From Polyangiales bacterium (GTDB lineage Bacteria > Myxococcota_A > Polyangia > Polyangiales > Polyangiaceae), in contig JBBRLQ010000011.1 in assembly GCA_038231275.1 (NCBI GenBank), positions 166,494 through 230,493 on the forward strand: a stretch of 64,000 nt of DNA, read 5' to 3'. A program made the position numbers and the translations under genes. Below the pieces are notes generated by a model. It was not told the DNA's origin. It did no database searches and saw only the letters and a program-made list of their open reading frames with translations. This document shows positions 734-24,700 of this stretch, in pieces. Numbering within the stretch: position 1 is the stretch's first letter; the number at the start of each line of letters is the position of its first letter.

Positions 734-1587
734 CCGCTCGAGAAGTCGGCCTGCAGGCACTTCGACGCCCCGTGGTCGGGGCCGGTGAAGAGCTCCACGC
801 ACGCCGCCTTCTGCGTGTACGCGGCGCACCCGCAGCCGCTCGCCGCCGACTCGCACGCGTTGATGTCGGTCGTCGTCGAGTTGGTGTCCTTCGCGCACGC
901 GTCGCACGCGGCCACGCGGCACTCGGTCGCCGCGAGGAAATCGTGCGCGCAGCTCTCGTTGCACGGCTCGAGGAGCGCGATGCAGCCGGCCGTGTTGGGG
1001 CTGACGAATCCGCCCGTCGCGACGAGCGCGCCGAGCGCGGTGCCGGTCGTCGGGAGGAGGCATTCTTGGCACGCCTTGCCGTCCGCGGTTCCCGTGAACG
1101 CCTTGCACGCGGCGCCGCCGTCGGTCTGTGTGCCGAGGCACACACTCTTGAACGTGCTGCGTTGCGCGGCGGAGCACTTGCCCTGGTGGTACGCGGTCGG
1201 CGCGATCCACTTCGGCGTGAAGGTCACGGTTCCCGGTGGCGAGCAGATCCCGCCGGCGTCGTTCGGCGTGCAGGTCACGCCCGCGTCGGGCACCGCGGTA
1301 CCGATCGCGACGCACGCGGGAAGGGGCCCGCTGTCCTTGCCGCTGCTTCCACTGGTGCCACTGGTGCCACTGGTGCCACTGGTGCCACTGGTGCCACTGG
1401 TGCCACTGGTGCCACTGGTGCCGCTGGTGCCGCTGGTTCCACTGGTTCCACTGGTACCGCGGGTGCCGCTAGTGCCGCTGGTTCCGCTGCTGCCGCCATC
1501 GCTGATCGTGGTGGTGGTCGTCGTCGTGCACGCGAAGACGGAGACGAGAAAGGGCAAGGTCACAAGGGAGGCTTGGATGAGCTTCAT
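697..1587 (-). CDS. Cys-rich lipoprotein with (Gly-Thr-Ser)n linker
   Basis: ATG at 1587; signal peptide with lipobox-like VFAC; about 15 GTS repeats; C-terminal domain with many Cys. Confidence 0.75.
1340..1497. repeat. 9-bp tandem repeat (ccactggtg and variants) encoding the GTS linker on the minus strand
   Basis: Visible directly: near-perfect ccactggtg units, degenerating to ccgctggtg/ccactggtt. Confidence 0.9.
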
Positions 1588-1720
1588 GCTTGACGGGGTA
1601 GCCGGCACGCCCCTCGGGCAAACGTCCCCAGGTTTCCCACAGCCCATCGGCTCGTTTCCGGCGCCCGAACGCCTCGCGCGCTCCCTTCGCGGTGCTCCTC
1701 GTGCTAGCGAATCGAGACCG

Positions 1721-5344
<3,624 letters not shown>

Positions 5345-13325: not shown

Positions 13326-13510
13326 GATGGTGTGTTTCTCTTCGGTACTATCCAAAAAGCTACAAGCAAGCGCGAGGGTTCGCAAACCCTCCTGTGCCTT
13401 CTAGCCGGCTTTGTAACGGGTCTGTGGGGAAAAAAGGTCCGAAAAAAGCGCGCAGGCTCCCGCCCACGAGCTGTGACAAGTGAGCGAAACCTTTGTACGG
13501 TGCTCGAGAA

Positions 13511-13726
13511 ATGGCCAGCACCGTCAACGCGCACATCACGGGCACCGTCTGGAAGATCGAGGTCAAGGAGGGCGACAACGTCCTCGAAGGGCAGACCTGC
13601 GTGATCCTCGAGTCGATGAAGATGGAGATGCCGGTCGAGGCCTCCACCAACGGCAAGGTGGAGAAGATCCACTGCGCCGAGGGGCAAGCGGTCAACGAGG
13701 GCGACGTCCTCATCACGCTCGCCTGA
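13511..13726 (+). CDS. Stand-alone biotin/lipoyl carrier protein (71 aa)
   Basis: GTVWKIEVKEGD...LESMKMEMPV...GQAVNEGD; MKM biotinylation motif. Confidence 0.9.
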   Translation: MASTVNAHITGTVWKIEVKEGDNVLEGQTCVILESMKMEMPVEASTNGKVEKIHCAEGQAVNEGDVLITLA

Positions 13727-13763
13727 AACCGCCGCTCGCGCGCTGCGTGGTACGCTTCTCCCC

Positions 13764-14108
13764 GTGAGGCCGCTCGTGAAGCCGCTCGTCTTCGCCGCGG
13801 TCGGTGTCACCGTGGCCGTGCTCGCGGCCTGCTCGACGAAGGCGAAGCTCATCGCGCAAGGGGGGGAGTGCCTCCAGGCGACGGACTGCGCGGACGGCCT
13901 CGTGTGCGTCCCGCAGAAGGACGGCCGGCGCCTCTGCGACAACGATCTCTCGCTCGTTCAATCCACGGAGGACGCCGCGGCGCCAGCACCCACCGACGCC
14001 GGTCGTCGCGACGGCTCCGCAGACGCCGCCTCCGACGCGCCGACGCCGCCCCCCGACTCCGGGACCGACGCCGACGATGGCGCGGTCGCCGACTCCGCTA
14101 CCGAGTAA
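13764..14108 (+). CDS. Small Cys-rich lipoprotein with acidic Asp/Ala tail
   Basis: Lipobox LAAC; C-x5-C-x4-C-x9-C module (GECLQATDCADGLVC...LC); DA-rich tail. Confidence 0.65.
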   Translation: MRPLVKPLVFAAVGVTVAVLAACSTKAKLIAQGGECLQATDCADGLVCVPQKDGRRLCDNDLSLVQSTEDAAAPAPTDAGRRDGSADAASDAPTPPPDSGTDADDGAVADSATE

Positions 14109-14111
14109 CCG

Positions 14112-15134
14112 TCACTCGCGCCAGAAGAACTTCCAAGGGTTGTGCTTCAGGTCGCGGACCATCTCCTGGAGATCGTCGTAGACCTGCTCGTCCATCAGGA
14201 GCGAGCCGACCGTCCCGTCCCCCTTCTTGATGTGCGCGACGATCGCCTGCGCGTCCGCCGCCGTCGCGTTGGCCCGCGCCGCGAGCTGCGCCACGTCCTC
14301 GAGCGCCTTCTTCAGCTTGGCTTGCTCGTCCGCGCCGCCGACGGTCGCCGAGACGCGGTTCAAGTTCGCCAGCGCCTCGCGCGCGTCCTTGAGCATCGGC
14401 CCGCTGTCCTTCTGAAGGTCAGTGGAGATGCGATCGATGTTGTCGATGGTATGGGCGATCTTGGGGTTGTCGACGTACTTCATCCGCGCGTCGTGCGTGA
14501 GCGTGTTCGCTTCCGCCGACAGCGCTTCGAGGTTCGCCATCGTGCGGTTGATGCGCTCGCGGTTGTCGGTGATGACGCCGTTCAGCCCCTTCAAGAGCCC
14601 CGCGGTGTTGACGGCGATGTCGCTGATCAGCTCGCGGTTGTTCTTGATGCCGGTGACCGTCGTGTCGAGCAGCTCGAACGCCTTCGCGAGGAACAGGTCG
14701 AGGCGCGGCGGATCGATCCCCTTCACGATCGCGCCGTCCTTCAGCACCGGCTTCTGGATGCTCCCCGGTTCGATCGCGAGGAACTGCTCGCCGAGCACGC
14801 CTTGCGTCGTCACGTAGAAATCCGCATCCTCGTGGACCGCCTCGCGCACGCGCTCTTCGACGGACAGCTTCGCGCGCACGAGGGTGCGCCGGTTGGTCTT
14901 CGGATCGACCGCGCCGTTCATGAAGCGCAGCTCCGACACCTTGCCGACCTTCACGCCGGCGATGCGCACCGGCGCGCCGGACTGGAGGCCGCCCGGGTTG
15001 TCGAAGTCGACGTAGACGGTGTACGTCTTCTCGAAATTCATGCCGCCCATGATGAGGATGAAGGCGGCCAGGATCCCGAGCGACACCAGGATCAAGACGC
15101 CGACCTTGACCTCGATCGATTTCTCTTGGGCCAT
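14112..15134 (-). CDS. mlaD: MCE/MlaD family protein with long helical extension
   Basis: EVKVGVLIL TM; FDNPGGL..GAPVRIAGVKVGKV; GVLGEQFLAIEPG; about 190 aa helical region ending DLKHNPWKFF. Confidence 0.9.
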   Translation of the reverse strand: MAQEKSIEVKVGVLILVSLGILAAFILIMGGMNFEKTYTVYVDFDNPGGLQSGAPVRIAGVKVGKVSELRFMNGAVDPKTNRRTLVRAKLSVEERVREAVHEDADFYVTTQGVLGEQFLAIEPGSIQKPVLKDGAIVKGIDPPRLDLFLAKAFELLDTTVTGIKNNRELISDIAVNTAGLLKGLNGVITDNRERINRTMANLEALSAEANTLTHDARMKYVDNPKIAHTIDNIDRISTDLQKDSGPMLKDAREALANLNRVSATVGGADEQAKLKKALEDVAQLAARANATAADAQAIVAHIKKGDGTVGSLLMDEQVYDDLQEMVRDLKHNPWKFFWRE

Positions 15135-15160
15135 GTCCGGCTAGCTTACGGCAAGAGGCG

Positions 15161-15907
15161 TCACGCCTCCATCGGTCCCTGCGCGCGGCCGTGGATGAAT
15201 TGCTGGACGACCCCGTCGTCGGTCGCCTTGAATTCGGCGGGCGTGCCGATCATCTTCACGAGGCCCTGGTAGAGCATGACGATCCGATCGGCGATCGTGA
15301 AGATGCTGACCAGATCGTGGCTCACGACGATGGACGTCACCCCCAGCTTGGTCGACAGCTCCCGAATGAGCTTGTCGACGCGGCGCGCGCTCACCGGATC
15401 GAGCGAGGTGGTGGGCTCGTCGAAGAGGACGTATTTCGGGTCGAGCGTGAGGGCGCGCGCGATGGCGACGCGCTTGCGCATGCCGTCGCCGAGCGCCGGC
15501 GGGTAGTGGTCGCCGAACTCCTGCATGTGCACGATCGCTAGCCGGCGTCGCGCCTCGGCGAGCGCGTCCTTCTGGCTGAGGCCCTTGTGCTTGCGGAGAG
15601 GCAGCGCCACGTTCTCGGCGCAGGTCATCGAGTCGAAGAGCGTCGAGTGCTGGAACACCATCGCGCATTTCTTTCGGATGGGATCCATCTGCTTCTCGCT
15701 GAACTGGCTGATCTCCTCGCCGTCGAGCCAAATTTGACCGTCATCCGGGTAGAGGAGGCCGACGAGGTGCTTGATGAGCACGCTCTTGCCGACGCCCGAC
15801 GCGCCGATGATGAAGAACACCTCGCCCGGCTTCACGTCGAAGCTCACGTCGGTCAGGACCGGCTTGGGGCCGAAGGACTTCTTGATGTTGCGAAACTGGA
15901 TCATCAA
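15161..15907 (-). CDS. mlaF: MlaF/Mkl-type ABC ATPase 1 (degenerate signature motif)
   Basis: Walker A GASGVGKS, MVFQ, Walker B VLFDEP, H-loop VSHD; signature position reads LGDGM. Confidence 0.9.
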   Translation of the reverse strand: MMIQFRNIKKSFGPKPVLTDVSFDVKPGEVFFIIGASGVGKSVLIKHLVGLLYPDDGQIWLDGEEISQFSEKQMDPIRKKCAMVFQHSTLFDSMTCAENVALPLRKHKGLSQKDALAEARRRLAIVHMQEFGDHYPPALGDGMRKRVAIARALTLDPKYVLFDEPTTSLDPVSARRVDKLIRELSTKLGVTSIVVSHDLVSIFTIADRIVMLYQGLVKMIGTPAEFKATDDGVVQQFIHGRAQGPMEA

Positions 15908-15919
15908 AGTTGGGCGCCG

Positions 15920-16753
15920 TCAGTTCGGGAAGATCAGGAACGCGGCGCCCGAGATGAAGAAGTTCAAGATGATGATGGCGAGGGACGAGTTGACGACGGC
16001 GCGCGTCGTGGCCCAGCCGACGCCCTCCGAGCCGCCGAAAGTGGAGAGGCCGCAGTAGCCGCTCACGATCGGGATCGCGGCGCCGTACGCGATGCACTTC
16101 GTGAGGCCCGTCGTCAGATCGCCCGCGTCGACGAGGCGCGCGTTGAAGAACGTCTCGGGTGACACGCCGAACGCCACGTACGCGGTGCCGGCGCCCGCGC
16201 AGAACGCCACCGTGCCGGCGAGGACGATGAGCATCGTCGTCATCACGAGGCTGGCGAGGAAACGGGGGACGATCAAAAAATCGATGGGATCGGCCGCGCA
16301 CATGCGGAGCGCGTCGACCTGCTCGGTGACGACCATCGAGCCAATTTCGGCGGCGATCCCGGCGCCCACGCGCGTGGCGAGCATGAGCGCGCCGATCGAC
16401 GCGGCGAAATCGCGGACGAGGAGCTCGAGGTACGTCGCGCCGAGCAGCGTGAAGTCGGGGACGATGCGCTTGGACTGCAGGCCCGCCTGGTACACCAGGA
16501 TCATCCCGATGAAGCCCATCGTGATGCAGAGGAAGAAGAGCGATTTGTTGCCGATCTCGTACATCTGCTGGACGAGCGCGCCCTTCTCGCGCTTGCCGCG
16601 GAAGACGTAATAGAGCGTCCGCACGAAGACCGAGTACATCTCGCGACCGCCGAGGATGAGATCGATCGCGGCGGCGCCGAGGGTGGCGACGAAGCCCGGT
16701 TCGGGCGGCTCCTCCTTCAGGTCGAGGGAGGACGGGGGCGCGGCGTCGGTCAT
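15920..16753 (-). CDS. mlaE: MlaE-type ABC permease 1
   Basis: RVGAGIAAEIGSMVVTEQVDALR...PRF; GVGWATTRAVV. Confidence 0.92.
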   Translation of the reverse strand: MTDAAPPSSLDLKEEPPEPGFVATLGAAAIDLILGGREMYSVFVRTLYYVFRGKREKGALVQQMYEIGNKSLFFLCITMGFIGMILVYQAGLQSKRIVPDFTLLGATYLELLVRDFAASIGALMLATRVGAGIAAEIGSMVVTEQVDALRMCAADPIDFLIVPRFLASLVMTTMLIVLAGTVAFCAGAGTAYVAFGVSPETFFNARLVDAGDLTTGLTKCIAYGAAIPIVSGYCGLSTFGGSEGVGWATTRAVVNSSLAIIILNFFISGAAFLIFPN

Positions 16754-16757
16754 CGCG

Positions 16758-17588
16758 TCATCCGAGTAGGAAGCTCACGAGGTAGTCGATCACGAAGACG
16801 CCCGCGGCGCTGGCGACGACCTGCGCGTTGACGGCGCGGCCGACGCCGGGGGCGCCGCCCTTGGTGGCGAGGCCGAAGTAACAGCTCGCGAGCGCGATGA
16901 GCAGGCCGAAGAGGAAGCTCTTGAAGAGGCCGTTCGCGACGTCGCCGAAGCCGAGGTTGAAGATGCCGGTGGTGAGGCCGTTGTAGAAGGTCTGCGGGTC
17001 GACCCTGAGGAGGCCCTGCGCGGTGTACGCGGCGCCGATGAGCGCGATGGCGTCGGCGAAGAGCGTCATCATGAAGAGCGTCATCGTGATCGCGATGAAG
17101 CGCGGGAGGATGAGGAACGAGATGGAGTCGATCGCGAGGACGCGCAGCGCGTCGAGCTGCTCGGTCACCACCATCGTACCGAGCTCGGCCGTGTTGTTTG
17201 CGCCGACGCGGCCGCTGATCATGAGCGCCGTGAGGAGAGGGGCGATCTCGCGGAGCGTCCCGAAGCCGGCGCCGCCGCCGATCATCGACTCGGCGTTGTA
17301 GCGCTTCACGATGACCGCGGCTTGGATGACCATGATCGCGCCGGTGAAGACGGCGGTGACCGCGACGATCGGCAGGGATTTTACCCCCATCTTGTAGAGG
17401 TTCTTCCAGAGCTCCTGACCGTCGAACCGGCCGCGCACGAGGCGCGAGAGGCAGCGGCCGAAGAGGATGCCCATGCCGCCCGTCGTCGTCGCGATGCCGA
17501 GGAACGCGGCGCCGACCCGCGCGGCCGTGACCTGGCCGAAGGGGACCTTCCGCTCTTTCGGCTCTTGGGGCGTGCTCGCGGCGGTCAC
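16758..17588 (-). CDS. mlaE: MlaE-type ABC permease 2
   Basis: REIAPLLTALMISGRVGA..TAELGTMVVTEQLDALR; GVGRAVNAQVV. Confidence 0.92.
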   Translation of the reverse strand: MTAASTPQEPKERKVPFGQVTAARVGAAFLGIATTTGGMGILFGRCLSRLVRGRFDGQELWKNLYKMGVKSLPIVAVTAVFTGAIMVIQAAVIVKRYNAESMIGGGAGFGTLREIAPLLTALMISGRVGANNTAELGTMVVTEQLDALRVLAIDSISFLILPRFIAITMTLFMMTLFADAIALIGAAYTAQGLLRVDPQTFYNGLTTGIFNLGFGDVANGLFKSFLFGLLIALASCYFGLATKGGAPGVGRAVNAQVVASAAGVFVIDYLVSFLLG

Positions 17589-17601
17589 GGAGGCGGCGAT
17601 C

Positions 17602-17916
17602 CTACTCGTCCCGCAGAAGCGCGTCGATCGCCACGAGGGGAGCGCTCGTCGCGACCACGAACGCGACGCTCCACAGGAGGCCGAGGCCCACGCCCGCGAA
17701 GCTGCGCCGCGTGCGCCAGAAGTGCAGCACGATGCCGATCTCCGGGAAGAGGACCATCGCCGAGAGCTTCGTCGACGACGGCCACGCGCGATCGAGCTGC
17801 TCGGGGGCGCGCGCGAAAAGGCGCCGTTCGTCCCACGAGAGAAGCATCAGAGCCGCGGGGATCTTGATCGCCATCGCGAGCACGAGCTCCAGCGCGTCGA
17901 GCGTCCCGTTCTCCAC
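17602..17916 (-). CDS. Small membrane protein (about 3 TM)
   Basis: Fills the gap between ATPase 2 and permease 2 with 4- and 13-bp spacing; hydrophobic segments; WDERRL....LDRAWP motif. Confidence 0.6.
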   Translation of the reverse strand: MENGTLDALELVLAMAIKIPAALMLLSWDERRLFARAPEQLDRAWPSSTKLSAMVLFPEIGIVLHFWRTRRSFAGVGLGLLWSVAFVVATSAPLVAIDALLRDE

Positions 17917-17920
17917 CGAC

Positions 17921-18676
17921 TCAGAGCGGCCCCTCCGTGAGGCCGTGCACGAACTGCTTCACGCGAGGCTCGATGCTCTCGACCGCCTCCTTCGTGGTCC
18001 CGTCGAAGATCAGCTCGCCGCGGTACATCATGCCGACGCGATCGGTGACGGTGACGAGGCGGTCGAGGTCGGACGACACCATGATGACGGTGGCGTTCGC
18101 GGCGCGCTGCTCGGCGCGGAGGAGCTCGAAGATCTTTTGCGACGTCACCGGATCGAGGCCGGCCGCGGGCTCGTCGTAGAGCACGATGGGCGCGTTCGTG
18201 ATGGTGGCGCGCGCGACGCCGACGCGCTTCTTCTGTCCGCCGGAGAGGCCGGCAGGCATGCGCGACTCGAAGCCGGACAAGGCGACGCACGCGAGGCGCT
18301 CGGCGACGCGCGCCTGCACCTCGGTCTCGGGCGGCGCGTAGAGGCGACGGAGCGGGAACGCGATGTTGTCGCCGACGGTGAGGTGATCGAAGAGCGCGTT
18401 GTTCTGGAAGAGCATGCCGAGGCGCTTACGGAGCTCTTGGAGCTTGAGATCGGTCAGCGTCGTCACCTCCTCGCCGGCCACGACGACCGAGCCGGCGTCG
18501 GGCCGCATCAGGCCCGTCACCATCTTGAGGAGGACGCTCTTGCCGGAGGCGCCGGGGCCGATCAGGCCGTAGAGGCAGCCTTCGGGGACGTGCAGGTTCA
18601 CGTCGCGGAGGACGTGCGCGACGCGCTGCGGGCCGCTCACTGGAAACGACTTGGAGACGCCGCGCAGCGTGATCAC
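17921..18676 (-). CDS. mlaF: MlaF/Mkl-type ABC ATPase 2 (H-loop His missing)
   Basis: GTG 18676 VITLRGVSKSF; Walker A GPGASGKS; GMLFQNNALFD; LSGGQKKR; VLYDEP; H-loop position reads VSSD. Confidence 0.9.
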   Translation of the reverse strand: MITLRGVSKSFPVSGPQRVAHVLRDVNLHVPEGCLYGLIGPGASGKSVLLKMVTGLMRPDAGSVVVAGEEVTTLTDLKLQELRKRLGMLFQNNALFDHLTVGDNIAFPLRRLYAPPETEVQARVAERLACVALSGFESRMPAGLSGGQKKRVGVARATITNAPIVLYDEPAAGLDPVTSQKIFELLRAEQRAANATVIMVSSDLDRLVTVTDRVGMMYRGELIFDGTTKEAVESIEPRVKQFVHGLTEGPL

Positions 18677-18683
18677 GTGACGA

Positions 18684-19433
18684 TCACCGCGCCGGTTCGG
18701 CGCTCCTGGCACGGAGGAGACGCGTGTAGACTGCAAGTAGCGCCCCGGCCAGGACCGCGATGAGGACGACCATCCCCACGAGGGAGAGCTGGAGCGATCG
18801 CAACGAGCCGCGCGCCACCGTGATGGGGCCGACGTGGGCGAGATCCGCTTCGCCAACGCGCGCGGGGGCGGCGCGCGGCACCGTCACCACCGCCACGTCG
18901 ACCGGCGAGAGGCCTCCCACGCCCCCCGCGACGAGACGCTGGATCGCGTCGCTCGTGAGCGGCGGCGTCGAGCCTCGATGCTCGACGAGGACGCTCGCCG
19001 ACGATTTCCCGACCGGCGCGTCGCGGAGCGGATCGCGCGTCGGCAGGTTGAGGTGCACGCGCGCCGCCAGCACCCCGTCGACCCCCTCGAGCGTGCGCTC
19101 CAGATCTCCGGCCAGTCCCGCGACCAGCTGCGCGTGCTCTTGCGCCTGGCTGGGCACGAGCGCGCCCTTGTCCATCGTGTCGAGCACGCCGCGCGGCCTC
19201 GGGCGGGGGAGGCCTTCGCCCTGCATCGCGACGAGCGCGCGCGGGACGTCGTCGCGCGCCACGGTCACGCGGATCTGTCCCTCACCGCCCGGATCGATCT
19301 CCTTGGTGGCGTCGATCTTCGCGTGGTCGAGCGCCACGACGATCCTGTTTGCGTCGGTCTCGTCGAGCCCCGCGCCGACCGGCACGCCGCAGCCGGCGAG
19401 GAGGACGGCCAAGAGGAGAGCGCGCGCGCGCAC
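18684..19433 (-). CDS. sctJ: SctJ/EscJ/YscJ-family ring-building lipoprotein (orphan)
   Basis: Lipobox LAGC; GLDETDANRIVVAL; GLPR; LVPS..QEHA......L..DLERTL..VDGVLAARVHL; SASVLV; IQRLVAGGV.GL....VAVV; C-terminal TM plus basic tail. Confidence 0.85.
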   Translation of the reverse strand: MRARALLLAVLLAGCGVPVGAGLDETDANRIVVALDHAKIDATKEIDPGGEGQIRVTVARDDVPRALVAMQGEGLPRPRPRGVLDTMDKGALVPSQAQEHAQLVAGLAGDLERTLEGVDGVLAARVHLNLPTRDPLRDAPVGKSSASVLVEHRGSTPPLTSDAIQRLVAGGVGGLSPVDVAVVTVPRAAPARVGEADLAHVGPITVARGSLRSLQLSLVGMVVLIAVLAGALLAVYTRLLRARSAEPAR

Positions 19434-19434
19434 G

Positions 19435-21318
19435 TCAGTTCCGCCCGTCCAGCACCGCCGGCGCCGGCTTCGGCGTGGGGGGCTTCGTGGCCGGGGGCTT
19501 CGGCGTCGTGGTCGGGGGCTTCGGCGTCGTGGTCGGGGGCTTCGGTGTCGCGGTGCCCTTCGGTCCGGGCGGCGCGGGCGTCGGCGGAGGCGTCGGTCCG
19601 GCGGCGGCCTTCTGGCGCTTCACGACGACGCGCTTCATCTCCTTCATCCAGCGCTCCATGTCGCTGCCCGGCGCGTGGTCCTTGCGGATCGCGGCCTCCA
19701 TCGGCCACCACGCGACGGGGCGATCGTTGATCGCGAAGACGATGTCGTACTGACCTTCTTTGTTCGCGAGCGGCGGCGGCGCCATGCCGTTGGACCCCAG
19801 GCACGACCACGTGTGCTCGGGGCGGAGCTCCGGCTTGAAGCAGCCGTCGCTGCGGCCGACGATGTTGCCGGCGTCATCGAGGACGAAAGCGCTGATGCTC
19901 ACGTTGGTGCCCGACCACCCGCGGGTGCCGCGCGCGAACCAGGTGTAACCGACGCGGCGCGGGTAGCTCCGCTCGGCCCACGCCGCGCGGATGCCCATGA
20001 GCGTGAGCGGATCGTCGTTGCCCATCATCGCCACAACGATGTCGACGTCGGGATCGCCGTCGTCGACCACGTCGGCGGAGTGCTCGTCGGCGAGCTCGTC
20101 GTCGTCGTCCTCGAGCTGCAGCGAGACCTGCGACTGGCCGATCTCTTTCCCGCCGCTTTTCAAAGTCACGAGGTACTTTCCGTGCGTCTTGGCAGTGAAG
20201 CGGAGGTTGCCGCTCACGAACGCGACGCGCTGGTGCTCGCCCACGCGAACGGTGGACGGCCACGACGCGACTACGTTTCCGTTCGGATCCTTCGCCTCGA
20301 ACTCGACGTCGGTCGGGCCCTTCGGAAGCCCGAAGACCATCGCCACCGCGGGGATGCGCGTGCCGTCCTGCTTGGCCTCGATGAGGTGGGCGTTGCCCAT
20401 GATGTGGGCGACCTGCTGATCGTTCGGATCGCGCGAGACGCTCAGGCGGTCGGTGATGAAGAGATCCGCGTACACCTTGCCGCGGTGCTTCTGCGCGTAA
20501 TCGGCGAGCACCTTCTGGACGGCCGGCGGGTGGCCGGCCTGCACTTCGCGCACCTCCGACGCGGCGACCGCGCTCGAGATGGGGGCGATGCCGCCGCTGC
20601 CGGTGAAGAGGATGGCGTGGTTGACGCCGACGACGTGCGGCTTGCCGGAGGCGTCCATGGTCACGACCGGCCCGCCCGAGAAGCCCGGGTACACGGCGCC
20701 GTCGAACAGCACGAGGCGCGCGCCGAACATGTCGACCTGTCCCGACGCGATGCCCTCGCTCATGCCCCACGACAGCGCCCAGTAGCCGTGCCCGGTGTGG
20801 CCGAGCGCCCAAACCGGCTCGCCGACGCGGATCTCTTTGGCGTCGATCGGCAATGGAGGCACGCCCGTGAGCGGCTGCTTCGGCCTGAGGATGGCGACGT
20901 CACGCACTTCGTCGATGCGCACGACCTCGGCGTCGACGGTCTGGCCGGTGCGCGTGGTGACCTTCAGCCGATCGGGACGGAAGACGACGTGCGCGGCGGT
21001 GACGATCTGTCCGCCCTCGACCATGAAGCCGGTGCCGTGCGGCGTCGGATCTTTGCGGAGCGAGACGTCGATGACGCGCTTGGGCGCCTTGGCCTCGTCG
21101 CCCAGCGTCCGTTCGATCTCCTTGATCTCCTCCTCCCGATCGGCGCGATCGTCGTTCAGGATCGCGACGACCGACGGCGCGGTGGCCTCGAAGACGGCGA
21201 GAGCGGTCGGCTTGGGAGGCGAAGCAGGCACGCTCGGCGCTCCTCCGCATGAAATGCCGACGAGTCCAGTCAGCACGAACGAAAGCAGCTTGGCGGTACT
21301 AAGATGCGGGGATTTCAT
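19435..21318 (-). CDS. Trypsin-like (S1) serine protease lipoprotein with unknown C-terminal domains and Pro/Thr/Lys tail
   Basis: Lipobox-like GISC; GTGF; TAAHVV; RDVAIL; YPGFSGGP; no recognisable PDZ; TPKPPTT repeats at the end. Confidence 0.8.
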   Translation of the reverse strand: MKSPHLSTAKLLSFVLTGLVGISCGGAPSVPASPPKPTALAVFEATAPSVVAILNDDRADREEEIKEIERTLGDEAKAPKRVIDVSLRKDPTPHGTGFMVEGGQIVTAAHVVFRPDRLKVTTRTGQTVDAEVVRIDEVRDVAILRPKQPLTGVPPLPIDAKEIRVGEPVWALGHTGHGYWALSWGMSEGIASGQVDMFGARLVLFDGAVYPGFSGGPVVTMDASGKPHVVGVNHAILFTGSGGIAPISSAVAASEVREVQAGHPPAVQKVLADYAQKHRGKVYADLFITDRLSVSRDPNDQQVAHIMGNAHLIEAKQDGTRIPAVAMVFGLPKGPTDVEFEAKDPNGNVVASWPSTVRVGEHQRVAFVSGNLRFTAKTHGKYLVTLKSGGKEIGQSQVSLQLEDDDDELADEHSADVVDDGDPDVDIVVAMMGNDDPLTLMGIRAAWAERSYPRRVGYTWFARGTRGWSGTNVSISAFVLDDAGNIVGRSDGCFKPELRPEHTWSCLGSNGMAPPPLANKEGQYDIVFAINDRPVAWWPMEAAIRKDHAPGSDMERWMKEMKRVVVKRQKAAAGPTPPPTPAPPGPKGTATPKPPTTTPKPPTTTPKPPATKPPTPKPAPAVLDGRN

Positions 21319-21513
21319 GGCGCGCCCACTTGGGTAGCCGAGATCGCGGCCTTTTCGCAACGCGCCTTTGTCGGGAAGACCAGGGTGGCATAGACTTCAT
21401 GCGGAGGGGGGCGACGACCGGACCAGGCCCCCCGACGACGAGCCGCCGCCCCCCCGGGCGCGCCGAAGTTGGGGCCTCCCGGGGCCGCCGATCGCGGAGA
21501 AAGCCGCCCGGTG

Positions 21514-21542
21514 TTGCGGCCGGCCCCGACGGGTGTTATCAG
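21514..21542 (+). promoter_or_regulatory. Putative sigma70-type promoter for the SNF2 gene leader
   Basis: TTGCGG-N17-TATCAG with extended TG at 21534-35. Confidence 0.45.
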
Positions 21543-21730
21543 GCTTAATAGGGCTGGCGCTCAACTGAGCCCGTCCGCGCGCCCTGTCGGGTGCGCTCGG
21601 CGGCCCCACCGCCCCAGCCGACTGCTCTTTTGCCAGCCCTGGGCCAGCCTTTGGCCCCCCTCGTACTTCCCATTGCGCGTTTTTCTGGCGCAAGGAAAGG
21701 CGCGCGGACTCCGCGTAGCACCCCCACCTC

Positions 21731-24700
21731 TTGGCGACACCCTTTCAGGACGCGCTCTCGACGCTGAACGACCGCTCCCTGCGGCGCTTGCTGGGCGCGC
21801 GCGCGTTTTTGCGCGGCTACGACTACGTCCGAAGGCACGCGGTGGACGGGGTGTCCCTCGAGGAGACCAGCGCCAAGGCGCTCGTGCGGGGCAGCGAACC
21901 GGAGCCGTATCAGGTCGGGCTTCAGCTGACCCCCAGCGGGTTCTCGTCGACCTGCACGTGCCCGGCGTTCTCGAAGATCAACGGGCACTGCAAGCACGTC
22001 GCGGCGCTGCTCATCGCGCTGCGCGACCAGTCGCGTGGTCCTTCGCCACGCCCACAAACGCCACAGCACCCCGCGCCATTGCCGCCGGGCTTTTCGGGTT
22101 TTTCGGACGGCGCGCGCGCGCGCTCGCACGTGCAAGGGGAAGGATCGGGCTCACCGATGCAGAACGGGTACTCCGCGGGAGGGGACATGGACGGCGCAGG
22201 CGGCAGCAGCCGGCGCAAGCGTCGCGCGCAGCGGGCGATGAAGATGCTCCAGCAGCGCGGCGGATCGCAGGGCGGCCACGGCGGGGGCCAAGGAGGCCAA
22301 GGAGGGCACGGAGGCCAGCAAGGCGGTCACGGGCCGCGCCCCTACGTGCCTGGCACCGTGCCCACGGGCGTCGATGCGTGGCTCCCCGAGCCGCTCCCGA
22401 AGGTCCCCAAGCAGATCGAATACCGCCTCCAAGCCAAGTCCGGCGCGCTCACGATCACGCTGCTCGATCCCGACAACCGCACGCCGCTGCTCCCGAGCGC
22501 GCTGCTCGCGTCGCAAGGCGAGAAGCCCAGCGCCGATCGCGAGGCCATCCGCCTCCTCGCGCGTTTGGAGAACGAGGGCCCGCGCCGCGTCGGCATCGAG
22601 GTACGCGGAGAGGACGCCGCGGATCTGCTCCCGCACCTGAAGGGTCGCCGTGTCATCGTCGAGCCCCAGATGATGGAGCTCCGCTTCGGCGACGAGCCGC
22701 TTCGTCCGCGCTTCGATCTCGAGCTCTCGCCCGACGGCCAGCACGTGATGGTCAAGTCGAGCTTCCAGCGCGCCGGCGATCCGCGAAAATTCACGATGGC
22801 GCACGGCGCGTGGTTCGAGGGAAGCCCCGGCTGGTACGTCGATCCGCAAGAGGGCGTCGCGCGTCCGATCGATCGCCGCGTCTCTCCCGCCGCCGTTCGG
22901 CGCTTGTCGCGCGCGCCGTTCATCCACGAGCCGATCGACAACCTCCCCGCGCTCATCGCGTCGGGTCTCCCGAAGGTGGCCCTCGAGGTCGGCGCCGAGC
23001 TGCCCGAGCTCTCGCAGGTCGCGGACGTCGTCGATCTCGTGCCGACCTTCCGCATGCGCGCCGGCGGCACGCTCACCGAAGCCCGCGTCGCCCTCCGCGC
23101 CGCGTACGAGGACATCGAGCTCGACGTCCGCGCCGATGGCATGACGCCCCCGGTCATCGTGAAGCCCCCCGAGGAGGGCTCGACGAAGCGCGCACGATGC
23201 ATCCGTTGCGACATCGCCGCCCAACAAGAAGCGGCCGGCAAGCTCCGCGACCTGGGGCTCGTCCCCGACGAGGACGGCAACAACTTCCTGGCGCGCGGCG
23301 ACGACGCGATCCAGTTCTGGACGGAGGGCATCGGCGAGCTGCCGGAGGACTGGGATCTCTTCGTCCCCGACGATCTCGTCGACGTGCAGGTCCGCGGCGA
23401 GGCGCTGAACGCCAACGCGCGCGTATCGAGCGGCATGGACTGGCTGAGCCTCCGCCTCTCGTTCGAGAGCGAGGGCATCGCCGTCACGCAAGAGGAGCTC
23501 GGCAAATGCCTCGCCGAGGGGCGCCGCTACGTGCGCCTCGCCGACGGGAGCTTCGCGCGACTCGACGCCGCGAAGGTCCGCGAGGTGCTCAATCGCCAGG
23601 CGGAGATCCTGGCGACCGGCGGAGGGCTGGGGAGCAAGCTGCCGCTCTCGCAGGCGGGGCGCCTCCAGGAATTGCTCGAGGCGGTCGGCCGCGCCACCGT
23701 CTCCGACAGCGCCAAGGAGCTCTTCACGAAGCTCCGCGACATCGACGAGATCAAGGGCATCAAAAAGCCGCGGAACCTGAAGGCCACCCTACGCCCCTAT
23801 CAGGAGCAGGGCTTCCAATGGCTCTGGTTTTTGAACGAAATCGGCTCCGGCGGAATCCTCGCCGACGACATGGGTCTCGGAAAGACCGTGCAGACCCTCG
23901 CGCTCCTCCTCGCGATCAAGAACGCGGAGAAGGACGGCGCGCCGAAGGACAAGAACGGTCTACCCCGCAAATTCCAGGCGCTCATCGTCGCGCCCACGTC
24001 GGTCGTCACCAACTGGCTGCGCGAGATGGATAAGTTCGCGCCGTCGCTCAAGCACGCGCTCTGGCACGGCGCGGAGCGCAAAGAGCGGCAGGACGAGCTC
24101 GAGGACGCGGACGTCATCGTCACGAGCTACGCGCTCCTCCGCCGCGACGAGGAGCTGCTCGCCAAACTGGACTTGCGGTACGCGATCCTCGACGAGGCGC
24201 AGAACATCAAGAACCCGCTCTCGGCCACCGCGCGCGCCGCCAAGCGTCTCAAGGCGGACCGAAGGCTCGCCCTCTCGGGCACTCCTATCGAAAATCGCCT
24301 GAGCGAGATCTGGTCGATCTTCGACTTCGTGAGCCCCGGCCTCCTCGGCCCGCTCGACAAGTTCGAGGAGCGCTACGCGCGTCCCATCGACAACGGCGAT
24401 CAGAAGGCCGCCACGCGCCTCCGCGCGACGATCCATCCGTTCATCTTGCGCCGCACGAAGAGCGAGGTCGCCAAGGATCTCCCGGAGAAGATCGAGACCG
24501 ATCAGTTCTGCGAGCTCGCGGGCGAGCAAGGCGCGCTCTACGCCGCCGTCCTCAAGGAGGTCCGCGCGCAGGTCCTGGGCGAGGTCGAGCGGCAGGGCAT
24601 CGGTAAGAGCCACATCCAGATTCTGGCCGGCCTCACGCGCCTTCGTCAGGCGGCGTGCGATCCGCGCCTCCTCGGCCTGCCGCGCCAGTTCGGCGACGAC

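Follow-up and report, generated by a model that had tools for sequence, protein, structure and literature searches.

A predicted MCE/Mla-type transporter with two complementary ATPases and one degenerate ATP site in Myxococcota

The window analysed here is a stretch of 64,000 nucleotides from a Polyangiales bacterium (GenBank assembly GCA_038231275.1, contig JBBRLQ010000011.1, positions 166,494 to 230,493; 70% GC), corresponding to contig C11 of a genome of 9.28 Mb in 164 contigs that is 94% complete. It encodes two different ATPases of the MlaF/MceG family, which we call F1 and F2, two MlaE-family permeases, E_A and E_B, and an MlaD-like MCE protein. In our view these proteins probably make up an ATP-binding cassette (ABC) lipid transporter of the MCE/Mla kind, in which F1 and F2 would form an obligate heterodimer, one of its two ATP sites being degenerate, on top of an E_A/E_B heterodimer and under a ring formed by the MlaD-like protein. 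We infer the formation of the heterodimer, the inactivity of its second site and the direction of transport from the sequences, and lipid as the substrate from family membership. The nearest named relatives of the F1 protein are found in Labilithrix, Sorangium, Polyangium and Chondromyces (Polyangiales, Myxococcota).

Complementary motifs and the predicted ATP sites

The five genes, with the motifs of the two ATPases as located by translation, are listed below in the direction of transcription.

17921-18676, minus strand: F2, MlaF/MceG-family ATPase, 251 amino acids (aa) from a GTG at 18676 (PF00005, 1.5e-30)
18536-18559, minus strand: F2 Walker A, GPGASGKS
18395-18409, minus strand: F2 Q-loop, FQNNA
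18233-18247, minus strand: F2 signature, LSGGQ, canonical
18164-18181, minus strand: F2 Walker B, LYDEPA
18068-18079, minus strand: F2 H-loop position, VSSD, with Ser in place of His
17921-17923, minus strand: F2 stop codon
16758-17588, minus strand: E_A, MlaE-family permease, 276 aa (PF02405, 1.7e-64; TIGR00056 at 192.9 bits, under the cut-off of 212.2)
15920-16753, minus strand: E_B, MlaE-family permease, 277 aa (PF02405, 4.4e-53)
15161-15907, minus strand: F1, MlaF-family ATPase, 248 aa from a TTG at 15907, with an ATG next, at 15904 (PF00005, 1.9e-33)
15782-15805, minus strand: F1 Walker A, GASGVGKS
15641-15655, minus strand: F1 Q-loop, FQHST
15479-15493, minus strand: F1 signature, LGDGM, degenerate, aligned to the LSGGM of solved MlaF
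15410-15427, minus strand: F1 Walker B, LFDEPT
15314-15325, minus strand: F1 H-loop, VSHD, intact
14112-15134, minus strand: MlaD-like MCE protein, 340 aa (PF02470, 7.8e-17; 61.7 bits against a cut-off of 25.1)

We place the start of F2 at or near 18676 because orthologue alignments begin at about residue 56-61 of the long open reading frame (ORF) of 311 aa. Both permeases score above the Pfam cut-off for PF02405, as expected for the MlaE family.

F1 and F2 are two non-identical nucleotide-binding domains sharing about 37% identity. The best solved relatives of F1 are MlaF 7d06 (4e-49), MceG 8fed and MlaF 6xbd, the MlaF chains ranging from 4e-49 to 2.5e-44. F2 is closest to the Mycobacterium smegmatis MceG 8fed (2e-47), and the MlaF chains 7d06, 7ch8 and 6xbd rank ninth onward. 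For both proteins the alignments reach the C-terminal QF..G..GP end of solved MlaF/MceG, which places them among the ATPases of this type. The best NCBIfam match of F1 is MlaF (NF008809) at 186 bits, and F2 reaches 163.7 bits, both under the equivalog cut-off of 441.

The initial annotation described F1 as retaining Walker A, the Asp-Glu of Walker B and a VSHD H-loop while carrying LGDGM at the signature, and on re-translation the coordinates proved exact. Its coordinates for the VSSD at the H-loop position of F2 are exact as well, and the LSGGQ that it saw kept in F2 is confirmed. On the other hand, GPGASGKS, which it had taken for a variant Walker A, fits GxxxxGK[ST] and is no defect. It was also right that LGDGM departs from the norm, although the norm within the MlaF family is LSGGM and not LSGGQ: the signature of Escherichia coli MlaF is 145-LSGGM-149 in the MlaFB preprint. 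The LGDGM of F1 aligns to the LSGGM of Acinetobacter baumannii MlaF 7d06. Given this family norm, F1 departs solely at the Ser and the first Gly. We take these two residues to be the ones that meet the γ-phosphate of ATP.

ABC ATPase domains pair head to tail, each ATP site being built from the Walker motifs and H-loop of one domain and the signature of the other. Because of this geometry, both lesions should fall in one composite site. This agrees with the earlier prediction that a heterodimer would gather the intact motifs in one site and the defects in the other, as every lesion maps to the same composite site and the partner motifs are intact. Site 1 would consist of the Walker A, Walker B and H-loop of F1 with the signature of F2, all of them consensus. 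Site 2, combining the Walker A, Walker B and H-loop of F2 with the signature of F1, would hold every lesion, namely LGDGM instead of LSGGM in F1 and the loss of the H-loop His in F2 (in other classes, the loss of the Walker B Glu). Since F2 retains the Walker A Lys, the Walker B Asp and the Q-loop Gln, site 2 should still bind ATP-Mg, with hydrolysis predicted to be poor or nil. Site 1 would then carry the turnover and spend roughly one ATP in each cycle, like TM287/288, TAP1/2, PatAB or CFTR.

The same motifs argue for a heterodimer in the first place. F2 keeps its signature and has lost catalytic residues, so it would have to lend that signature to a different, intact domain; F1 keeps its catalytic residues and has lost its signature, so it would have to borrow one from a partner. 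F1 and F2 are each other's only candidates, because they co-occur and because both flank the same two permease genes.

Conservation, linkage and rival explanations

That the substitutions might be strain-specific or sequencing errors, an alternative raised by the initial annotation, fails in an alignment of orthologues, where the F1 signature is degenerate in 62/62 sequences and F2 carries a catalytic lesion in 60/60. These are the totals of a pooled motif set (F1, n=62; F2, n=60) from which one F2 row, L158b, was dropped as a different ABC gene. Every F1 has the Walker A Lys, the Q-loop Gln, the Walker B Asp-Glu and the H-loop His (each 62/62), and we did not observe a canonical signature in any of them (0/62). 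The position is occupied by LGDGM (25), IGDGL (14), FGDGM (7), LGDGL (4), LSDGM (3), VGPSE (3), VGDGL (2) and the singletons IGDGM, IGDGS, IGAGL and VGPGE.

F2 is the mirror image. Its signature is LSGGM (33), LSGGQ (25), LAGGL (1) or MSGGQ (1), that is, LSGG[QM] in 58/60, and the Walker A Lys, Q-loop Gln and Walker B Asp are each present in 60/60. The residues at the Walker B Glu and H-loop positions are Glu and Ser in 29 sequences, Glu and Thr in 1, Asp and His in 28 and Asp and Gln in 2; the pair Glu and His is never found. This division follows taxonomy, with Glu plus Ser/Thr in all 30 F2 of the window's class and Asp plus His/Gln in all 30 of the other Myxococcota classes. Judged by these residues, the catalytic site of F2 itself is crippled in two alternative ways across the phylum, and the F1 signature is degenerate everywhere. 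Mapped onto the composite sites, the lesions of site 2 (F2 with both Glu and His, 0/60; F1 with a canonical signature, 0/62) face partner motifs that are intact in 62/62 F1 and 58/60 F2.

Closer relatives give the same picture. In a set of 41 related genomes, F1 orthologues were taken at ≥56% identity and E≤1e-90 (ordinary paralogues reach ≤47%) and F2 orthologues at ≥49% identity. The 21 F1 sequences read from these genomes all keep Glu and His and never have a canonical signature (0/21), and the 14 F2 sequences all have LSGGQ together with Ser at the His position. Among 80 further Polyangiales loci from named genomes, LGDGM was found in 78, the other two being regular-expression misses; the 24 F2 genes within these loci comprise 23 with Glu and Ser and one such miss. 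As both substitutions are kept in orthologues down to about 40-55% identity, chance or sequencing error is excluded.

As a control, the single-domain proteins closest to F1 were taken from a library of 1.84 billion proteins; of these 64 representatives, 49 have xSGGx together with Glu and His. Likewise, a paralogue encoded beside a single MlaE gene in the same genome as the window has LSGGM, DEP and His. The mean column identity is 45% for F2 versus 71% for F1, which means that F2 evolves faster.

F1 and F2 tend to be found together. Within the 41 related genomes, F1 orthologues occur in 26 and F2 orthologues in 25, with both in 24 and neither in 14. The two genomes with F1 only (G017 and G020) are 75% and 85% complete, and the single genome with F2 only (G019) is 75% complete. 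Across the phylum, F1 orthologues (≥52% identity, E≤1e-72) were found in 156 of 401 evenly drawn Myxococcota genomes, and the cultured strains that have one include Sorangium cellulosum So ce56, Labilithrix luteola and Chondromyces apiculatus; the design thus appears widespread. A phylum-wide search with an F2 profile matched 392/401 genomes at 1e-60, the scores of true F2 and of ordinary MlaF paralogues overlapping at about E 1e-82 to 1e-90; co-occurrence is read here from the 41 related genomes and the fetched loci.

To describe gene order we used 40 regions from 36 genomes across the phylum, of which 25 had been picked for an F1 and an F2-like match within a few kb, so that the sample is biased towards linkage, and 15 came from families without a previously seen F1/F2-like pair. 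A contiguous F2-E_A-E_B-F1 block is present in 32/36 genomes. The exceptions are one genome with only one MlaE call and three genomes of one family in which the block is split or partly fetched.

The two permeases are different proteins, as the initial annotation had stated: E_A and E_B share about 35% identity and represent two ancient lineages in the MlaE tree, E_A with 43 rows on one side of a branch with support 99 and E_B with 43 rows and support 100. In a FastTree of the ATPases, all 44 F2 rows form one clade (support 99), and 45 F1 rows form another together with three library representatives (support 99). We also considered whether F1 and F2 are sister paralogues, a relationship unsupported by this tree, whose row set leaned to F1.

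Several observations weigh against an obligate heterodimer with one inactive site. The lesion counts include related genomes, which are not independent samples, and lesion events are few: on the F2 tree the Glu/Asp state changes once and the H-loop state four times, so the large counts reflect long retention and not many independent origins. F1 and F2 are not sister clades in the FastTree, although its rows were chosen by F1 likeness and the placement of F2 is unreliable. Moreover, in the window's own order, Polyangiales, F2 is often separated from the permease genes: no fewer than six genomes (G005, G007, G008, G011, G034 and G040) have it on a different contig or at a distance of many kb, and there is no F2 within 6 kb of F1 in 22 of the 80 Polyangiales loci, including that of S. 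cellulosum So ce56. These 22 rearranged loci (L187 of So ce56, L177, L212 and 19 more, among them loci of Sorangium, Polyangium and Chondromyces) read MlaD(-) F1(+) E_B(-) E_A(-), with F1 inverted between the MCE gene and E_B. The replaced residues of F1 are themselves conserved (Gly at position 2 in 59/62, Asp at position 3 in 57/62), which hints at selection for a new role and not at simple decay. Finally, Asp for the catalytic Glu, or Ser for the His, may still permit slow hydrolysis.

The last two points bear on the possibility that an F1/F2 heterodimer does work on E_A/E_B but turns over ATP at both sites, the unusual residues being tolerated or re-tuned. We regard this as improbable. The strong conservation of the F1 substitution, above all of the Asp at signature position 3 (57/62), would suggest a function, and F2 has kept its Walker A Lys, Walker B Asp and Q-loop Gln throughout (60/60) and, in the window's class, the catalytic Glu as well (30/30). 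However, not one of the 60 F2 sequences combines the catalytic Glu with the H-loop His, and two different lesions strike the same site. Closure around ATP should also be weakened by an acidic side chain at the point of contact between signature backbone and γ-phosphate. Finally, in the heterodimeric exporters described in PMC9541285 and PMC5626490 the site with such changes is the non-hydrolysing one.

The loss of linkage bears instead on a second possibility, that F1 homodimers drive E_A/E_B while F2 homodimers serve another partner, either another MlaE protein or a system involving the SctJ/YscJ-family lipoprotein encoded next to F2. Of 25 Polyangiales loci examined that contain F2, 17 have this SctJ-like gene beside it, including loci in which F2 and the permeases are not linked, and the window's genome holds three more single MlaE genes and five additional matches to the MCE domain that could provide partners. 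We nevertheless consider separate homodimers very improbable. Neither site of an F1 homodimer would have a canonical signature, and both sites of an F2 homodimer would be short of a catalytic residue; why F2 should conserve its signature while losing catalytic residues would be left unexplained. In addition, F2 is directly upstream of E_A in the 32 genomes with the contiguous block, F1 and F2 co-occur by 24 to 3, and outside the window's order no SctJ-like gene was found beside F2 by tblastn.

The heterodimeric design with one degenerate site, which we prefer, may not be confined to Myxococcota. The four best F1 matches overall in the protein library (P0001-P0004) are tandem MlaF-like ATPases of about 550 aa, in which the first domain has LSGGM and the second a degenerate signature (ISSGQ, VSAGE or ISNGE), both with DEP and His. 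From their motifs they look like a fused form of the asymmetric pair. Furthermore, 11 of the 64 single-domain relatives nearest to F1 (P0012, P0101, P0119, P0034, P0039, P0047, P0076, P0109, P0135, P0141 and P0144) have non-canonical signatures, such as IGDSI, ISEGI, LSAGE, LSIGE and LSYGM, with Glu and His intact. P0012 (signature IGDSI) is the nearest non-myxobacterial F1-like representative and groups with the F1 clade together with P0101 (support 99). Lys, Asn, Ile, Tyr and Phe are abundant in P0012, P0101 and P0034.

A scan of metagenome contigs with P0012 returned three close loci, all short and of 24-30% GC, whose F1-like gene carries LGESI or VGESI. Neither an MlaE gene nor a second ATPase was detected near the F1-like gene in these three short loci by tblastn (and, for L243, Pfam), and they neither support nor refute a wider distribution. 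Taken with the library relatives, asymmetric MlaF pairs may be wider still than the Myxococcota design.

A bolder extension would treat the conserved Gly-Asp-Gly of F1 as a redesign, with an acidic residue at the γ-phosphate clamp that turns site 2 into an ATP latch or sensor that never fully closes. Matched by the difference between E_A and E_B, such a site would make the machine a bridge-type lipid pump without MlaB or MlaC that spends one ATP and works in one direction only. The design would be ancient, with degenerate-signature and fused tandem relatives in other lineages. We think it doubtful that all of this holds.

Genes around the ATPases and permeases

The five genes belong to a run of eight consecutive minus-strand ORFs, from 21360 down to 14112, with intergenic gaps of ≤26 nt. 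Past the MCE gene the strand switches, and a biotin/lipoyl-domain ORF follows on the plus strand. The remaining members of the run are the following.

19435-21360, minus strand: trypsin-family (HtrA-like) protease, 641 aa (Pfam scan)
18684-19433, minus strand: SctJ/YscJ-family lipoprotein, 249 aa (PF01514, 1e-23; TIGR02544 at 129.7 bits, under the cut-off of 161.95)
17602-17916, minus strand: small hydrophobic ORF between F2 and E_A, 104 aa, GC at third codon positions 0.93 (a strong sign of coding), without a Pfam family

A promoter and terminator scan of 13400-21900 gave one promoter-like and two terminator-like sites, not above what shuffled sequence gives.

The MCE gene encodes a membrane-anchored MCE-domain protein, as judged from Pfam and an AlphaFold2 monomer model. 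The model has a helix at residues 2-29 and a β-domain at 37-138 with a predicted local distance difference test score (pLDDT) mostly of 80-95. The following stretch of about 190 residues (145-338) is modelled as helices with pLDDT under 55, and the whole model has a mean pLDDT of 66.7 and a predicted template modelling score of 0.44. Low confidence in these helices is expected, because the model is a monomer of a part that would pack in a ring.

The 104-aa ORF has tblastn matches of 78%, 68%, 41% and 37% in four loci (L031, L061, L055 and L034, respectively), only in close relatives. Mce1 has a small membrane protein regulator, Mce1N, according to 10.1101/2022.06.08.495402. By position alone, the 104-aa ORF recalls such small regulators, a possible analogy.

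The SctJ-like protein has an N-terminal signal peptide ending in LLAGCG, taken here as a lipobox, and towards its C-terminus a hydrophobic stretch resembling a membrane helix. Its gene stops 8 nt before the start of F2. No other type III secretion genes were found near it in a Pfam scan of the neighbouring genes. Among the 40 loci fetched across the phylum, the only SctJ-like match is in L156, which belongs to the window's own order, about 1.4 kb upstream of F2. The SctJ-like gene was considered as a component of the transporter and set aside, since it adjoins F2 only in the window's order and its membership is uncertain. FHIPEP (SctV-type) loci occur twice in the genome, on C15 and C8, but there are only two YscJ-family matches, one in the C15 locus and the other the window gene. 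One possibility is that the SctJ-like protein supplies the ring protein that the C8 system lacks; another is that it acts with the transporter.

In two loci of other classes the place of the SctJ-like gene, just upstream of F2, is occupied by a TPR-repeat protein (L123:1932-2993 and L139:1575-2753) with weak likeness to YfiO/BamD-type outer-membrane lipoproteins.

The protease gene ends 1 nt before the SctJ-like gene, and its product has a long C-terminal tail rich in Pro, Thr and Lys; no PDZ domain was found in it in the Pfam scan. Elsewhere in the window, a gene on the plus strand at 785-5344 encodes a DNA polymerase III alpha subunit of 1519 aa whose PHP domain starts only at residue 319, after an N-terminal extension of about 300 residues without a Pfam match.

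Comparison with known systems

For MCE/Mla transporters, both the coupling of ATP use to lipid movement and the direction of that movement are still debated. To our knowledge, every such system that has been studied has a pair of identical ATPase subunits, so that its two sites cannot be told apart. If our reading is true, a natural system of this kind, with an intact and a crippled site on two different permeases, would make it possible to place mutations in each site and each half independently, and the degenerate-site principle would extend from exporters to a lipid-trafficking family. The view of the initial annotation that a fully asymmetric Mla-type complex is uncharacterised is in line with the literature covered: no account of two MlaF subunits or of a degenerate site in an MCE system turned up in full-text searches outside subscription journals and supplements, or in term searches of PMC10665443 and 10.1101/2022.06.08.495402.

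The system shares with MlaFEDB of E. coli, A. baumannii and Pseudomonas aeruginosa (6xbd, 7d06, 7ch8) an MlaE-family permease, an MCE-domain MlaD and an MlaF-type ATPase, and the final Met of the F1 signature is the family norm according to the MlaFB preprint. The preprint also confirms that E. coli MlaF is a homodimer, as the initial annotation had stated, and reports that the STAS protein MlaB and a C-terminal MlaF 'handshake' of about 25 aa are required in E. coli. In the present system we found no STAS (MlaB-like) gene in Pfam scans of the operon and neighbouring genes. F1 and F2 align only as far as residue 258 of 273 in 7d06 and 252 of 269 in 6xbd, so that both lack the last 15-17 residues of the MlaF chains, a tail that overlaps the 'handshake' described in the preprint.

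These absences could be taken to mean that F2 is a non-catalytic, regulatory pseudo-ATPase, a conditional binder in the place of MlaB and not a constitutive half of the motor. Its faster evolution would fit such a role, as would the lack, in both proteins, of the tail that overlaps the extension binding the MlaF-MlaB neighbour in E. coli. Nevertheless, the nucleotide-binding domain of F2 is complete, its Walker A, Q-loop, signature and D-loop all being conserved, which is more than a binding partner needs, and F1 by itself cannot provide a canonical signature for the F1 site. We therefore hold a regulatory F2 to be extremely improbable.

As a motor of two ATPase halves, F1/F2 would differ from MlaFEDB, where a homodimeric ATPase with two LSGGM sites works with a homodimeric permease; here there are two ATPase and two permease genes, and the MlaD-like protein is long (340 aa). 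What marks an E. coli-type MlaFEDB, namely an equivalog score, MlaB with the handshake, and a homodimeric ATPase and permease, does not describe this system.

Mycobacterial Mce1/Mce4 (YrbEA/YrbEB, MceG and MceA-F; 8fed) is alike in having two different MlaE-type permeases as a heterodimer, in MceG as the best solved relative of F2, and in MCE proteins with long helical extensions. In the Mce1 structure, as reported, the ATPase is a MceG homodimer and six proteins form the heterohexameric MCE ring. The present system stands apart through its two complementary ATPases and its single MCE gene.

With regard to the motor, the closest likeness is to ABC transporters with a degenerate site (TM287/288, TAP1/2, PatAB and CFTR), which have non-canonical catalytic residues in one domain (Asp for the Walker B Glu, or no H-loop His) and a non-canonical signature in the other, so that a single composite site takes all the lesions. 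TAP1/2 and TM287/288 have one consensus and one degenerate ATP site. In PatAB (PMC9541285) and CFTR (PMC5626490), one ATP site hydrolyses and the other does not, according to these papers. Those transporters, however, are exporters or channels in which the transmembrane and nucleotide-binding domains are fused and the membrane fold is a different one, whereas here separate ATPases of about 250 aa would act on permeases of the MlaE fold. By analogy, the system is best read as working like the type IV heterodimeric exporters (TM287/288, TAP, PatAB), but it is no member of that group, as it has no fused half-transporters. It is a member of the MCE/Mla transporter kind that differs from every studied example.

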